Shown here: one piece after another, positions 6,387-11,262 of the stretch
Layout of the letters: each line of letters starts with the position of its first letter
How positions within the stretch are numbered: position 1 is the first letter of the stretch
From: Clostridium sp.
GTDB taxonomy: Bacteria; Bacillota_I; Bacilli_A; RF39; UBA660
Assembly: GCA_023665725.1 (NCBI GenBank)
Contig: JAMPDH010000001.1
Span: forward strand, 3,567 to 67,566
DNA: 64,000 nucleotides
Reading direction: 5' to 3'
Position numbers and translations under genes: made by a program
Notes under the pieces: generated by a model
The model's database searches: none
What the model saw: the letters and a program-made list of their open reading frames with translations, nothing else
Told to the model about the DNA's origin: nothing

Positions 6387-6491
6387 GTTTCACCTACTTT
6401 ATAATAAAAATTATAACATATTTATATAATTTTTAAAAGTTTTTTTGAATTAGTGTGTTTATTGATGTATAATTAACTTGGAGGGTAAGTT

Positions 6492-7682
6492 ATGTATAGA
6501 AAAACATTTATTGAGATTAATTTAAATAATTTATATAATAATGTTAAAAAATTAACGGATTTTTATAAATATAAATATTATATTGGTGTTGTAAAAGGGT
6601 CTTGTTATGGACATGGTGAATATATTGTTAATACATTGGTAGATGCAGGTATTAATTATTTAGCTATTTCATCATTAGAGGAGGCAATAAAATTAAGAAA
6701 ATATAATAAGGATACTCCTATTTTATGCCTTGAACCTATTGATATGGATTATTTAAATATATGTATTGAAAATAATATAGCTATAACTTTACATGATTAT
6801 AATTATTTTAAAGATTTAATTAATCTTAAATTAAATGGGGTTTTAAAAATACATTTAAAGATAGATACTGGTATGAATAGACTTGGCATAAAATCCTCGA
6901 ATCAAATTAATGAAATTTATAACAAATTGATTGAAAATAAGAATTTTTATTTGGAAGGAATTTATACACATTTTGGTACATCTGGTGTTTATGATAAAAC
7001 TTATGATAATCAAGTAGATAGATTTAATTATTTAACTAAGGATATTGATTTATCAAAGATACCAATTGTTCATTTAAATAAAAGTGTTAATGTACAAGCT
7101 CATACTAAAATGAACTATGAAACAGGAGTTAGACTTGGAATAGTAATGTATGGTTATAATCAATTAAATGGTCCAATGCTTAATACCTTTAGGCAAAAAT
7201 TGAGATATTATAGAAAAATATTTAGAAATAAAAGATTAGGTGTTTCTAAAACCATAAAAAAATGTAACCTAGAGTTAAAGCCTTCTTATAAATTAGTTAG
7301 TGAAGTAATTCAGGTTAAAAAAATTAATAAAGGTGATCATGTTGGATATGGAGAGGTTTTTACAGCTCAAAGTGATGGATATGTTGCAACTATTCCCATA
7401 GGGTATGCTGATGGGTTTAGTTTAGATAATACTGGTAGAACTATTTTAATTAATGATAAGCGATATAAAATTATAGATATTGTTATGATGGGAATGATTA
7501 CAGCGCTTGTTGATGAAACTGTTAAAGTACATGATAGAGTGGTTTTAATGGGTGATGATATATCTATTCTTGAAGTAAGTATACATAATCATTCAACTCA
7601 ATATGAAACTTTGTGTCGAGCAAATTCTAATGTGCCTAGAGTATATATTAAAGATAATAAAATTTTACATATAGAAGAATAG
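6492..7682 (+). CDS. alr: Alanine racemase
   Basis: 396 aa; PLP-binding N-terminal motif VVKGSCYGHG (cf. VVKANAYGHG); GGAGGG SD upstream. Confidence 0.85.
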   Translation: MYRKTFIEINLNNLYNNVKKLTDFYKYKYYIGVVKGSCYGHGEYIVNTLVDAGINYLAISSLEEAIKLRKYNKDTPILCLEPIDMDYLNICIENNIAITLHDYNYFKDLINLKLNGVLKIHLKIDTGMNRLGIKSSNQINEIYNKLIENKNFYLEGIYTHFGTSGVYDKTYDNQVDRFNYLTKDIDLSKIPIVHLNKSVNVQAHTKMNYETGVRLGIVMYGYNQLNGPMLNTFRQKLRYYRKIFRNKRLGVSKTIKKCNLELKPSYKLVSEVIQVKKINKGDHVGYGEVFTAQSDGYVATIPIGYADGFSLDNTGRTILINDKRYKIIDIVMMGMITALVDETVKVHDRVVLMGDDISILEVSIHNHSTQYETLCRANSNVPRVYIKDNKILHIEE

Positions 7683-7685
7683 GTA

Positions 7686-7722
7686 AAAAGTCTAAAAATT
7701 TGATATGTTTTTTAGACTTTTT
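7686..7722 (+). terminator. Rho-independent terminator of alr
   Basis: inverted repeat aaagtctaaaaa / tttttagacttttt followed by a T-run. Confidence 0.6.
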
Positions 7723-7776
7723 TTGATTTTACGTTTTGCTTTATTTTTAATCTTAGCAGTTGTTTTCTTTCTGAAT
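7702..7776. repeat. Direct-repeat copy 1 (about 70 bp), a duplicated 3' end of the thermonuclease gene
   Basis: nearly identical (1 mismatch over about 67 nt) to 8629-8703; minus-strand translation gives FRKKTTAKIKNKAKRKIKKSLK, the nuclease C-terminus. Confidence 0.8.
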
Positions 7777-7967
7777 ATTTTAACTCCTAATAATTCATAA
7801 ATCTTTAATTAAATATTTTTTCCTTTTTTATTCATAATATAACCCTTCTTTTTTAAAGTTCCTATATTAAAATTGAGAAACTATCCCGTGAAATTGGCTT
7901 ATATACTAACAAAAAAACTATAAAATGTCGTTTTTATTAGTTTACTACATCCTTTATTCTTTTTCTC

Positions 7968-7995
7968 TTGACAAAAATTAAAATTTGTGTAAAAT
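7968..7995 (+). promoter_or_regulatory. sigma-A-like promoter (TTGACA-N16-TgtgTAAAAT)
   Basis: consensus -35 plus extended -10, read directly from the sequence. Confidence 0.4.
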
Positions 7996-8023
7996 AATGT
8001 GTACACAAAGGAAGTAATATATA

Positions 8024-8052
8024 TTGACAAATTACAACCTTGTGAATATAAT
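8024..8052 (+). promoter_or_regulatory. Consensus sigma-A promoter TTGACA-N17-TATAAT (plus strand)
   Basis: perfect -35 and -10 hexamers with a 17-nt spacer; drives the plus-strand small RNA. Confidence 0.55.
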
Positions 8053-8058
8053 TAAATT

Positions 8059-8230
8059 AAGAATGAAGTGTAAGGGAGATTTTACATTAATTCGTATTAT
8101 ATTCATTAATTTGAATATAATAAAAAGAGATACACTTGATATTTGTGTGTTAGGTGTTATCTCTGTCCGAAAAAATTTTTAGACTTGGAAAACACCATAC
8201 TCAGCAGTTGAATAGGTGTTTTCTTTTTTA
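8059..8230 (+). ncRNA. Candidate small RNA (about 170 nt), antitoxin-like antisense partner
   Basis: bounded by the consensus promoter and the bidirectional terminator; contains the hairpin agagatacac...gtgttatctct; only a weak TTG-started 25-aa ORF inside. Confidence 0.3.
8170..8230. terminator. Bidirectional rho-independent terminator
   Basis: stem ggaaaacacc / ggtgttttcc with an A-run on the 5' side and a T-run on the 3' side, so it can terminate both strands. Confidence 0.55.
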
Positions 8231-8281
8231 GTCCTCTTTTAGTAAATAAATAAGTATTAGTATTATAACAATGTACTCCAT
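8228..8281 (-). CDS. 17-aa hydrophobic peptide MEYIVIILILIYLLKED (type I toxin-like candidate)
   Basis: ORF inside the minus-strand transcript; stop abuts the terminator; preceded by AGGAAA and GGAGGTG SD-like sequences; single TM-like helix. Confidence 0.3.
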   Translation of the reverse strand: MEYIVIILILIYLLKED

Positions 8282-8378
8282 AAATTTCCTGCAGTGGACA
8301 TCACCTCCGTTCTAATTTAAGAATAAAAATCAAAAAATGAACAGAGGAACACCTAACTATCTTGTGTATCTCTTAATC

Positions 8379-8407
8379 ATTATATTATTAATTTAATATA
8401 GTGTCAA
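8379..8407 (-). promoter_or_regulatory. Consensus sigma-A promoter TTGACA-N17-TATAAT (minus strand)
   Basis: revcomp of 8402-8407 is TTGACA; revcomp of 8379-8384 is TATAAT; 17-nt spacer; faces the plus-strand promoter. Confidence 0.55.
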
Positions 8408-8627
8408 TTAAAATAAGAACTATAGATTTGATTAAACAAGAAATATGTCCTATTTATGTCCTAAAATTTTAAATTATTATAATTTATAATTTGGCTAAAA
8501 ATGGTATATTTTGGATTACAAAAATGCAATACAAACTGTATTTTTATCTCTCCATAGAGTAACCAATTTAATTTTGAGTCTATATCATTTATCAAAGTTA
8601 AACTTAATTCTTGGCATATAACTAAAT

Positions 8628-9284
8628 CTATACATTTTTTAGACTTTTTTTGATTTTACGTTTTGCTTTATTTTTAATCTTAGTAGTTGTTTTCTTTCTG
8701 AAGGATTTAGAAAAAATACAACATACAATTATGACAATTAAACTTGATATAATTATTATGTAATTGGTATTATTATCTTCTTTTTTTTCATCGTTTTTAT
8801 TTTCACTCCAAATACCTATTTTTTGATATTCTGCGATTTTTTCATGATCTTTTAAAATACTTGTATATTTATAATCCCCATATAGATATGCAACTTCTGC
8901 AAGACCTTCTTTTATTAATGTATCTTGAAGTAATATATCATCTACCCATATCCATGCTAAATATCTATCATATTTATCTGTTTTAGAACTATTATCATCA
9001 AATTCTAATTCTATTTTAGTTGCATTTGTAAGTTTGCTGCAAGTAAATATACTTGCTTCCTTTCCGAATGATTCTACTTCTTTTTTTGGATGTACACTTT
9101 CTGGTGTATCTATAGCAAGAAATCTAACCTTTATAATATCGTTATTATAGTTAAAACTTGCAGTATCTCCGTCTATACATTTATTTAATGTAACTATCTC
9201 TTTTTCATAGGCTTTTACAATTAATGGTGTTGCTAAAATAAATACTAATAAAAATTTAAATACTATTTTTTTCATATACTTCAC
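8628..9284 (-). CDS. Thermonuclease (SNase-like, staphylococcal nuclease homologue) with C-terminal TM anchor
   Basis: 218 aa; signal peptide; SNase motifs DGDT ... RFLAIDTPE; C-terminal TM plus basic tail; 3' end coincides with direct-repeat copy 2 (8629-8703). Confidence 0.8.
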   Translation of the reverse strand: MKYMKKIVFKFLLVFILATPLIVKAYEKEIVTLNKCIDGDTASFNYNNDIIKVRFLAIDTPESVHPKKEVESFGKEASIFTCSKLTNATKIELEFDDNSSKTDKYDRYLAWIWVDDILLQDTLIKEGLAEVAYLYGDYKYTSILKDHEKIAEYQKIGIWSENKNDEKKEDNNTNYIIIISSLIVIIVCCIFSKSFRKKTTTKIKNKAKRKIKKSLKNV

Positions 9285-9450: not shown

Positions 9451-11262
9451 ATGAAGAAAATAAAAAATATAGCGATTATAGCCCATGTTGACCATGGTAA
9501 AACAAAATTAGTGGATAAATTATTAGAAATGTCACATACGTTTAGAGAAAACGAAGATATAAGTGAATTATCAATGGATTCTAATGATATAGAAAGAGAA
9601 AGAGGTATTACAATACTTGCTAAAACTACATCAATTAATTATAAGGATTACGTTATAAATATATTGGATACACCGGGGCATGCTGACTTTGGTGGAGAAG
9701 TAGAAAGAATAATGAATATGGTTGATGGAGTATTGCTTGTAGTTGATGCTTACGAAGGACCAATGCCACAGACAAAATTTGTTCTTAAAAAAGCATTACA
9801 AGCACATGTAACACCAATTCTTGTTGTAAATAAAGTAGATAAACCTGCAGCTCGTCCTAAACAAGTTGTGGATGAAGTAATAGATTTATTTATAGAATTA
9901 GGTGCTGATATAGATCAATTAGATTTTCCTGTAATTTATGCTTCTGCTTTAAATGGAACATCTAGTATGTCACCTGAGGTTGATAAGCAAGAGAAAACAA
10001 TGGATTATATATTAGATACTGTTATTAATACAATTCCAGATCCTAATACTGAAATAGATGGTTTCTTACAATTCCAACCAGCTTTACTTGATTATAATGA
10101 TTATGTTGGTAGAATAGGTATAGGATTAGTAAAAAAAGGTAAAATTCATACTAATCAAATGGTTTCCTGTGTAAGATTAGATGGTTCTATCAAACAATTT
10201 AGAATTGCTAAATTATTCGGATTTTTTGGACTTAAAAGAGTTGAAATAGAAGAAGCAGTGGCGGGGGATATTATTGCTATTTCAGGGCTTCCTGATATTT
10301 CAGTTGGAGAAACTGTATGTGAAATAGGACATGAAGAAGCTCTTCCTATAATAAAAATAGATGAACCTACTTTACAAATGACTTTTGGTGTTAATTCAAG
10401 TCCATTTAATGGTAGAGATGGTAAATTATTAACTGCCAGAAAAATAGAGGAAAGACTATTTAAAGAAACTGAAAAAGATGTTAGTTTAAAAGTAGAACCA
10501 ACAGATTCTGAATCATTTATAGTTTCAGGAAGAGGAGAACTTCATCTTGCAATACTTATAGAAAATATGAGACGTGAAGGCTATGAATTACAAGTATCTA
10601 AACCATCTGTAATAATTAAAGAGGTAGATGGGATTAAGATGGAACCATATGAAGAGTTACAAATTGATATGCCAGAAGAATATATGGGAGTAGTTATAGA
10701 ACAATTAGGTATGAGAAATGGTACAATGGAAAGTATGTCAAATGAAAATGGTCAAGTAAGACTTGGCTATATTATTCCATCACGTGGATTATTAGGATTT
10801 TCAACGGATTTTATGACATTAACTAAAGGTTATGGAATAATGAATCATTCATTTAAAGAATTTAGAGAATATCAAAATATAGAAATTGGTGAAAGAAAAT
10901 TAGGAGTATTAGTTTCAATGGAAAATGGTAAATCAACTGCTTATGCATTAGGTCAATTAGAAGATAGAGGTATTATGTTTATAGAACCGGGTGTAGAAGT
11001 ATATGAAGGAATGATAGTTGGTGAACATTCTAGAGATAATGATCTTGCTGTAAATGTAGTTAAAGGAAAAAATTTAACAAATACAAGAAGTTCAAGTAAA
11101 GACCATACTGTAGTTCTAAAAAGACCAAGACCAATAACATTAGAATATGCATTAAGTTATATTAATACTGATGAATTAGTAGAAGTAACTCCAAATAATA
11201 TAAGATTAAGAAAGAAAATTTTAAATACAGAACAAAGAAAAAAAATAGAGGCAAGAGGTTAA
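9451..11262 (+). CDS. typA: Translational GTPase TypA/BipA
   Basis: 603 aa; N-terminal G-domain AIIAHVDHGKTKLVDKLL, DTPGHADF; EF-G-like domains. Confidence 0.9.
   Translation: MKKIKNIAIIAHVDHGKTKLVDKLLEMSHTFRENEDISELSMDSNDIERERGITILAKTTSINYKDYVINILDTPGHADFGGEVERIMNMVDGVLLVVDAYEGPMPQTKFVLKKALQAHVTPILVVNKVDKPAARPKQVVDEVIDLFIELGADIDQLDFPVIYASALNGTSSMSPEVDKQEKTMDYILDTVINTIPDPNTEIDGFLQFQPALLDYNDYVGRIGIGLVKKGKIHTNQMVSCVRLDGSIKQFRIAKLFGFFGLKRVEIEEAVAGDIIAISGLPDISVGETVCEIGHEEALPIIKIDEPTLQMTFGVNSSPFNGRDGKLLTARKIEERLFKETEKDVSLKVEPTDSESFIVSGRGELHLAILIENMRREGYELQVSKPSVIIKEVDGIKMEPYEELQIDMPEEYMGVVIEQLGMRNGTMESMSNENGQVRLGYIIPSRGLLGFSTDFMTLTKGYGIMNHSFKEFREYQNIEIGERKLGVLVSMENGKSTAYALGQLEDRGIMFIEPGVEVYEGMIVGEHSRDNDLAVNVVKGKNLTNTRSSSKDHTVVLKRPRPITLEYALSYINTDELVEVTPNNIRLRKKILNTEQRKKIEARG

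Follow-up and report, generated by a model that had tools for sequence, protein, structure and literature searches.

The 64,000-nucleotide stretch analysed here (hereafter the window; contig JAMPDH010000001.1 of a Clostridium sp. genome, 25.2% G+C) contains two perfect consensus promoters that face each other in a 945-bp gene-free gap, and it raises the question of what such a pair expresses. The gap lies between the genes for an alanine racemase (alr; 6492-7682, plus strand) and a membrane-anchored thermonuclease (8628-9275, minus strand), and no gene is annotated in it in the public record JAMPBU010000002.1 (GCA_023666545.1), which is identical to the window. A first-pass annotation, made from the letters of the sequence, had read the locus as a type I toxin–antitoxin (TA)-like module. 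Our analysis supports this reading in silico through the conservation of a whole cassette, selection on its small open reading frame (ORF), covariation in its small RNA (sRNA) and a tandem and mobile-element context. We conclude that the locus is probably a self-contained type I TA-like cassette of about 300 bp, belonging to a family of which we found no description.

Both promoters proved to be exact TTGACA-N17-TATAAT sites. They are 355 bp apart, with a strong hairpin between them, and they are the only perfect sites in the window, where 0.08 would be expected; none of 100 shuffled sequences reached two, which bears out the earlier judgement that the pair is unlikely by chance. We found that the same arrangement recurs elsewhere. 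A pattern built from the positions common to both copies of a motif carried by the two predicted RNAs matched three metagenome-assembled genomes named 'uncultured Bacilli bacterium' (species-representative genomes), and a gapped pattern covering both versions of the motif matched JGI/ENA metagenome contigs and one IMG/VR contig, while two further patterns run against viral contigs returned nothing. Together, these searches gave 13 modules on 10 distinct contig sequences, the window included (12 further sites on 9 contigs). There is one module each in the window and at the related loci L008, L009, L017, L031, L037, L043 and L046; L010 carries three in tandem, the module of L016 was recovered again as L044, and that of L020 again as L041, which also has a second sRNA copy. 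The carriers are AT-rich genomes and metagenomes of uncultured gut 'Bacilli', together with the IMG/VR contig.

The order of the elements is common to the family. On the sRNA strand, the sRNA promoter is followed by hairpin 1, an A-tract, hairpin 2 and a terminator; the other strand carries the small ORF, its Shine–Dalgarno (SD) sequence, a GRGGUGAU element, an anti-SD segment, a GAGAUACA motif (hereafter X) and the toxin promoter. The likeness of the relatives to the window is confined to 8088/8108-8414, and the cassette occurs once in the window. In the relatives, a −10-like box lies no more than about 10 nt upstream of X, and in the window the −10 box of the toxin promoter ends 6 nt before it. 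The sRNA promoter of the relatives reads TTGAC[TAG]-N17-TA[TGA]AAT and is placed about 35 nt upstream of hairpin 2, whereas the perfect plus-strand promoter is specific to the window and lies about 45 nt further from the conserved hairpin.

The first-pass annotation had described a hydrophobic 17-aa ORF on the minus strand with an SD sequence and a stop codon at the terminator, and this description holds, the stop codon overlapping the U-tail of the plus-strand terminator. The ORF is intact in every copy (15 are listed, of which two are sequences recovered a second time), codes for 17-22 aa, starts with ATG or TTG and is preceded by its own AGGA or AGGAG 5-11 nt upstream. The peptides have in common M-E-[YLF]-[ILV]-V, a core of hydrophobic residues and a tail of the form K/Q…D: MEYIVIILILIYLLKED in the window, MEYIVLILILIYLLKKD in L031, MEYIVLILILIYLLKKDN in L009, MEYIVLLIIAVMVITKFYNQD in L016/L044, MEYLVMLVLCLAIL[K/E]KFLDRD in L008 and L037, MEFLVALIVILALLQKFLNDGQ in L046, and M[E/K]LV[VI][AI]F[AI][IT]IV[FL]YTI[LI]VLK[ND]KD in L010, L017, L020 and L043. 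Proline is found in none of the 11 distinct peptides, glycine only in the tail of the L046 peptide, and the PXXXG motif in none. Compared pairwise within length classes, the ORFs differ at codon positions 1, 2 and 3 in the ratio 35/18/61, with 51 synonymous and 43 non-synonymous codon differences, and the replacements are mostly exchanges among I, L, V, A and F; the pairs are phylogenetically non-independent, although the direction is clear. This codon pattern indicates purifying selection on the small ORF, in the frame proposed for it, and marks it as a real gene. We infer that its hydrophobic product acts as a membrane-active toxin.

The plus-strand RNA is conserved as a structured unit, as the earlier reading implied. 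In the window, the RNA of 8059-8232 folds into five hairpins with a minimum free energy (MFE) of -53.2 kcal/mol (z = -6.0), and an nhmmer match covers 8105-8226 (E = 1.9e-23). RNAalifold, applied to an alignment of 14 copies, recovered the terminator as well as hairpins 1 and 2; double compensatory changes are seen at 9 of the 28 pairs, spread over all three structures. For example, the sequence of hairpin 1 is nearly all replaced while its stem is kept; one of its pairs is AU, CG, UG or UA, depending on the copy. Owing to its many G·U pairs, hairpin 2 is far more stable when read as sRNA (-11 to -19 kcal/mol) than when read on the other strand (-0.9 to -12.5 kcal/mol). The predicted sRNA of the relatives measures about 125-135 nt; in the window the promoter lies further upstream, so that the sRNA gains a window-specific 5' hairpin. 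A search of Rfam at E <= 10 gave only noise for the region in the window; at the gathering score, ten related loci yielded only a T-box and tRNAs elsewhere, with no match to the cassette. We also weighed and discarded a 39-aa ORF on the plus strand (MKCKGDF..., from 8063), as it has no SD sequence and its 5' part falls in sequence that the relatives do not share.

The two RNAs had been proposed to converge on one bidirectional terminator and to overlap only at their 3' ends. The predicted convergent 3' overlap stands, but the shared hairpin (T1) is a good terminator only for the plus-strand RNA. In the 8 nt past its stem there are on average 5.4 U in the sRNA direction as against 2.2 in the mRNA direction (14 copies; mRNA range 0-5), and in the window the minus direction reads CAAGUCUA, with 2 U of 8. 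A simple terminator scan did not list T1 because its loop is above the limit of the scan; RNA folding does predict it. Further along the mRNA strand lies the reverse complement of hairpin 2, and in 14 of 14 copies the 8 nt after it include 6-7 U (in the window, the U-run at 8125-8120). As the U-tail of T1 is good only sRNA-ward and this second site (T2) has the better one, the mRNA would often read on to T2, which is probably the real terminator of the toxin mRNA and the partner of its 5' end. On these grounds, the overlap with the sRNA is probably about 110 nt rather than the terminator alone; the sRNA is complementary to at least the T1 region of the mRNA (about 40-60 nt), and to about 110 nt if the mRNA reaches T2. 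The predicted toxin mRNAs of the family measure 190-270 nt.

A related 5'-proximal hairpin had also been noticed in both RNAs. The motif AGAGATACAC..GATA..T..GTGTT indeed occurs exactly twice in the window, once per strand (8126-8151 on the plus and 8373-8348 on the minus strand; 0 expected). It forms the extreme 5' end of the minus RNA, but the plus RNA carries it in its interior, 67 nt from where transcription is predicted to begin. Both copies belong to an inverted repeat of about 40 nt, the copies about 170-200 bp apart, and are thus same-sense and not mutually complementary as RNA. They are better read as an mRNA 5' end (X) that mimics the sRNA (hairpin 2 with its extension, X'): the first ~40 nt of the mRNA are a same-sense copy of sRNA hairpin 2 and the extension, and so are complementary to the 3' untranslated region (UTR) of the same mRNA if it ends at T2. 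A helix that closes the mRNA between its 5' and 3' ends is the MFE feature in all 11 full-length mRNAs that were folded. The duplex of X with the cognate 3' UTR has -31 to -47 kcal/mol, compared with -12 for shuffles, and cognate combinations are better than non-cognate ones (permutation p = 5e-5). In addition, X and X' vary in parallel among the subfamilies (CUCUGU, CUCUAU, CUCCACA), and where X and X' differ at the CUCU[G/A]U position, the combinations are G-C, G-U and A-U, and never A-C.

These sequence elements, their conservation, the coding selection, the RNA covariation and the complementarities suggest how the cassette may work. The minus promoter would give an mRNA of about 190-250 nt that starts at X and codes for the hydrophobic peptide, and the plus promoter an sRNA of about 170 nt with three conserved hairpins, whose terminator abuts the toxin stop codon. 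With the mRNA reading past T1 to T2, the sRNA would be perfectly complementary to some 110 nt of its 3' UTR. Binding, probably beginning at the complementary terminator loops, would produce a long duplex and lead to decay of the mRNA, on the model of RNase III action at bsrG/SR4 and txpA/RatA, and in this way the sRNA may serve as the antidote. The same binding would displace the sRNA-mimicking 5' end of the mRNA from its 5'-3' helix of more than 30 bp. This helix would otherwise shield the two mRNA ends, and it runs directly into the stem in which the strong SD-like element GGAGGUGAU is buried. Thus the mRNA 5' end, carrying a copy of the pairing sequence of the antitoxin, and the antitoxin itself might compete for one 3' site. 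Antitoxin binding at this distant site would then affect both how stable the mRNA is and whether a decoy or standby ribosome-binding site 5' of the very short toxin ORF is open or closed, with a possible contribution from a mok-like frame. We offer this competition tentatively, as a possibility with the odds against it. The coordinates of all elements in the window are collected in Table 1.

Table 1. Elements of the cassette in the window, with positions counted from its first nucleotide
Element	Position	Strand	Remark
Putative antitoxin (sRNA) promoter, perfect TTGACA-N17-TATAAT	8024..8052	+	12/12 match
Toxin mRNA promoter, perfect TTGACA-N17-TATAAT	8379..8407	-	12/12 match
Predicted antisense sRNA	8059..8229	+	~170 nt
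sRNA, window-specific 5' hairpin	8061-8093	+	
sRNA, hairpin 1	8095-8122	+	
sRNA, A-tract	8121-8125	+	
sRNA, conserved hairpin 2	8126-8164	+	
sRNA, small hairpin	8165-8184	+	
sRNA, terminator T1	stem 8187-8224, U-tail 8224-8229	+	
Shared hairpin T1 (GGAAAACACC...GGUGUUUUC)	8187..8229	both	
X', sRNA hairpin 2 and extension AUCUCUGUCC	8126..8172	+	
X, putative 5'-terminal motif of the toxin mRNA (GAGAUACACAAGAUAGUUAGGUGUU)	8348..8372	-	same-sense copy of the sRNA hairpin 2 sequence
17-codon ORF MEYIVIILILIYLLKED, putative membrane toxin	8228..8281 (ATG 8281, TAA 8228)	-	coding selection
SD sequence of the toxin ORF, AGGAAA	8285..8290	-	5 nt before the ATG
Strong SD-like element GGAGGUGAU	8300..8308	-	conserved; 19 nt upstream of the toxin ATG
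Anti-SD CCUCUGUUC, pairing with GAACGGAGG (8312-8304)	8339..8347	-	9-bp stem burying GGAGGUGAU
Predicted toxin mRNA with read-through to T2	8120..8372	-	~250 nt
Predicted toxin mRNA if ending at T1	8372-8185	-	~188 nt

The strong SD-like element belongs to the GRGGUGAU element (GAGGUGAU), which is kept in every module at a distance of 19-40 nt before the toxin start; in each case its pairing partner is the segment immediately 3' of X. Compensatory changes in this anti-SD stem (CUCUGUUC/GAACGGAG, CUCUAUCU/AGAUGGAG, CCUCCACAUAA/UUAUGAGGAGG) maintain the pairing, and the stem is worth about -14 kcal/mol. An ATG stands 8-9 nt past the GRGGUGAU element in 10 of the 13 modules (L009, L010, L016, L017, L020, L031, L043 and L046) and opens an ORF of 28-52 aa, which overlaps the toxin ORF, always in the +1 frame, and whose products are not conserved as proteins. 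This frame recalls mok/hok, or a standby site.

The buried element also invites a different account of the sRNA, which might act mainly in trans on the strong SD: the extension AUCUCUGUCC mimics the anti-SD and could pair with GAACGGAGGUGAU, in the manner of SprA1AS or the RNA II of par, with the mRNA ending at T1 and no 5'-3' helix. The duplex of the extension with the SD region has a mean of -12.3 kcal/mol, against -7.7 ± 2.7 for shuffles and near the value of the cis stem, the extension changes in parallel with the cis anti-SD across the subfamilies, and interaction outside the overlap has a precedent in Fst/RNAII and SprA1/SprA1as (PMC8594479). However, cognate pairs have no advantage over non-cognate ones (-12.3 as against -11.8 kcal/mol), and the segment is partly locked in the stable hairpin 2 of the sRNA (-11 to -19 kcal/mol). 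Moreover, action in trans leaves unexplained why a copy of the sRNA hairpin stands in the first 25 nt of the mRNA and why the run of 6-7 U is constant. We hold this account to be improbable as the main mode of action, while it is compatible with the 3'-pairing model rather than exclusive of it.

Several observations weigh against the TA reading or against parts of its mechanism. Since the members were found by a motif-derived pattern, the conservation of the motif core is partly by construction. Among all aligned differences, pair-preserving X:3' UTR transitions exceed pair-breaking ones by a mere 24:12, which is no more than suggestive, and gene conversion between the inverted copies, instead of selection for pairing, could account for part of the likeness of X and X'. 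The T2 stem is weak in the mRNA sense in some copies (-0.9 to -12.5 kcal/mol overall), so that read-through to T2, and hence the 5'-3' helix, is uncertain. Partition-function folds of free, sRNA-blocked and T1-truncated mRNAs gave no consistent shift in how accessible the start codon, the toxin SD or the strong SD is, and consequently we assert no sign for a translational effect. The window is without the ATG of the overlapping frame, having CTG in its place (8294-8292), and L008 and L037 have ACG. Finally, a Pfam scan of the peptides matched no toxin family at E <= 10, and their length lies at or below the usual 20-60 aa of type I toxins (PMC8594479).

The failure of the peptides to match a toxin family also suits the view that the locus is a conserved gene for a small membrane peptide with a cis-antisense regulator and a benign role (e.g., the modulation of a membrane protein), and not a TA pair. 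Coding selection, sRNA structure and the convergent layout are equally compatible with such a gene, and many cassettes lie between housekeeping genes. The wider context speaks otherwise. The gene neighbourhoods of the cassettes are unrelated to each other: trpS and a DDE transposase flank L009, a resolvase and SSB L008, a CHAP-domain protein L037, MutS, Fur and rubrerythrin L044, ribosomal protein S20 L010, an ABC exporter L017, two tRNA genes (9023-9095 and 10516-10588) and an ABC ATPase L031, and an M23 peptidase and a LytTR regulator L046. In L010 (1670-2900), three complete cassettes stand in a row with near-identical toxins and diverged sRNA hairpins, and L041 (520-1165) has two sRNA copies; tandem copies and mobile-element neighbours are common for type I TA loci. 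At the five loci of thermonuclease (SNase) homologues, L003-L007, the BipA-SNase gene pair is present and the cassette absent. The varied contexts, the arrays, the mobile neighbours and the absence from the syntenic loci of the nearest relatives point to an element that is selfish and mobile, and away from a function integrated into the host. Buried ribosome-binding elements and near-consensus promoters are also typical of products that are kept off (PMC7472228, PMC8594479). A benign role is accordingly the less likely choice, and we would give it a small share of the probability, below that of action in trans.

The search also produced matches that do not belong to the family. Most metagenome matches of the gapped pattern have a 5-nt gap and were rejected (L011-L015, L018, L019, L021, L023-L030, L032-L034, L036, L039, L040 and L045): they are chance matches in a highly conserved coding stretch, …CKYCHNRDTWDMTLGEEKTLEEI… (CxxxCxxC-NRDTWDM), which looks like a glycyl-radical/PFL-type (radical-SAM) activating enzyme of a common gut organism. 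Matches with a gap of 2 or 3 were likewise rejected as chance, lying in unrelated stretches that also read as coding. L016 has a T-box leader (6447-6665, plus strand; 109.7 bits) about 5.6 kb away from its cassette and unrelated to it.

Around the cassette in the window, an 80-nt direct repeat (7703-7782 and 8630-8709; 93% identical, with 68 nt at 98.5%) encloses an 847-bp gene-free insert (7783-8629) that contains it. The left copy comes directly past the alr terminator, and the right copy makes up the 3' end of the thermonuclease gene, where it codes for the Lys-rich C-terminal tail; the repeat looks like an attL/attR-type duplication left by an integrated, later decayed element, or like a partial tandem duplication. 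The alr terminator is a perfect 14-bp inverted repeat (AAAAAGTCTAAAAA / TTTTTAGACTTTTT; 7685-7722), and one arm recurs as a 14-nt copy at 8173-8186, in the part of the sRNA that separates hairpin 2 from T1. A third promoter close to the consensus, TTGACA-N16-TAAAAT (11/12; 7968-7995, plus strand), stands 56 bp upstream of the perfect plus-strand promoter, in a portion of the insert without counterpart at the related loci. The thermonuclease carries a signal-like segment at its N terminus and, at its C terminus, a hydrophobic anchor and the Lys-rich tail. Its nearest homologue in a collection of 5.8 billion proteins is only 62% identical, which indicates that the host lineage is sparsely sampled, and an Alr-based search of genome contigs for related loci gave no relative. 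Phage and plasmid records, searched by BLAST with the insert and with two divergent cassettes, yielded no meaningful match, only a low-complexity one of 47 nt in Borrelia.

Such surroundings would allow the cassette to be a miniature mobile element or the remnant of a decayed island, with X and X' as terminal repeats and the promoters and the ORF incidental to it. The inverted repeat, the varying insertion sites and the direct repeats around the insert fit this idea. We nevertheless consider it very unlikely: the conserved sequence reaches outside the inverted repeats and includes both promoters, which speaks against a miniature transposable element, the ORF has its codon-position bias, compensatory changes occur even in RNA stems unrelated to the repeat, and no transposase is consistently associated. 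As to coincidence, with AT-rich hexamers that resemble promoters happening to lie beside a hairpin in spacer DNA that codes for nothing, the low G+C content and the unremarkable number of weaker promoter-like sites (at least 9/12; 28 observed, 30.6 expected from shuffles) would make room for it, but the excess of perfect sites and the recurrence of the arrangement at 12 other sites refute it, and we give it practically no weight.

With these alternatives weighed, the type I TA-like cassette can be set beside the systems that are known. Type I loci have mRNAs of 150-400 nt, toxins usually of 20-60 aa and antisense RNAs of 60-200 nt, and T1TAdb lists only 24 families, nearly all of them from cultured Proteobacteria and Firmicutes (PMC8594479). 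The cassette has the general features of this class, with a small hydrophobic ORF on a short mRNA and a convergent RNA of about 125-170 nt that is able to pair. Type I systems are hard to find because toxins and RNAs both evolve fast. If our reading is true, the cassette adds a family from uncultured, very AT-rich gut Bacilli, with a toxin among the shortest known. The 13 natural variants form a covariation set for how binding at the 3' end reaches the 5' ribosome-binding region, and a cassette of 300 bp is small enough to be synthesized and tested directly.

The likeness to Ibs of Escherichia coli that the first-pass annotation had drawn extends to size only. Ibs toxins are very short (18-19 aa) and extremely hydrophobic, but Sib fully overlaps the ORF, which in the cassette lies outside the sRNA, and the SIB_RNA covariance model gives 14.8 bits where its gathering score is 56 (E = 7, noise). 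The par locus of Enterococcus faecalis plasmid pAD1 (Fst/RNA II; Fst/Ldr) is closer in layout. It has convergent promoters, a shared terminator, a stem that sequesters the SD and a helix that sequesters the 5' end (PMC7472228). All of these have counterparts in the cassette (for the stems, analogous and not homologous ones), including the hiding of the extreme 5' end of the toxin mRNA; the terminator loops are complementary and can begin the contact between the RNAs, and the overlap excludes the ORF, with the caveat that the U-tail of the shared hairpin is good only sRNA-ward. Fst, like the cassette peptide, is a single hydrophobic helix with charged N-terminal residues and a charged tail (PMC7472228). 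In contrast to par, no direct repeats of the DRa/DRb kind were found between the 5' part of the sRNA and the toxin initiation region; the repeated motif of the cassette is inverted in the DNA, so that its two RNAs carry the same sequence and not complementary ones. The toxin has 17-22 aa instead of 33, with neither PXXXG nor a Pfam match, the sRNA has about 125-170 nt instead of about 40, and the 5' end pairs with the 3' UTR, while that of par pairs with a nearby upstream helix. Without DRa/DRb and PXXXG, the cassette is not a member of the Fst family.

The full-length mRNAs of hok/Sok (with mok) and of aapA1/IsoA1 of Helicobacter are closed by a long-distance 5'-3' interaction, through the fbi element in hok and a comparable long-distance contact in AapA1, as we propose for the cassette, and the ORF that follows the strong SD in 10 of the 13 cassettes, overlapping the toxin ORF in another frame, recalls mok. 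These systems are proteobacterial and have no sequence relation to the cassette, and their antisense RNAs target the 5' region, whereas here the target would be the 3' segment that is predicted to pair with the 5' end.

The closest parallels are bsrG/SR4, bsrE/SR5, txpA/RatA and yonT/SR6 of Bacillus subtilis, with a convergent cis-antisense RNA and a 3' overlap of about 100-120 nt. SR4, which acts at the 3' end of bsrG, promotes decay and also tightens the sequestration of the SD (PMC3834814). The proposal for the cassette resembles this in duplex-triggered decay combined with a long-range effect on an SD, and in contact through the terminator loop (PMC3834814, PMC8594479). The Bacillus toxins have 30-59 aa and their overlap includes part of the ORF (PMC8594479), whereas the ORF of the cassette lies outside the overlap, and neither Pfam nor Rfam reveals similarity to TxpA/RatA or BsrG/E/H-SR4/5. 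The cassette would thus work most like bsrG/SR4, but with a toxin of half the size or less and with an mRNA 5' end that mimics the antitoxin. To our knowledge, mimicry of the sRNA by the mRNA 5' end is not a described feature of the bsrG-type systems of Bacillus. On the present comparison, the best place for the cassette is that of a new family, or a variant, within the Gram-positive, 3'-convergent kind of type I TA system, one whose RNA design would join the 3'-convergent antisense of the Bacillus type to the 5'-3' lock and overlapping leader frame of the hok/aapA1 type.

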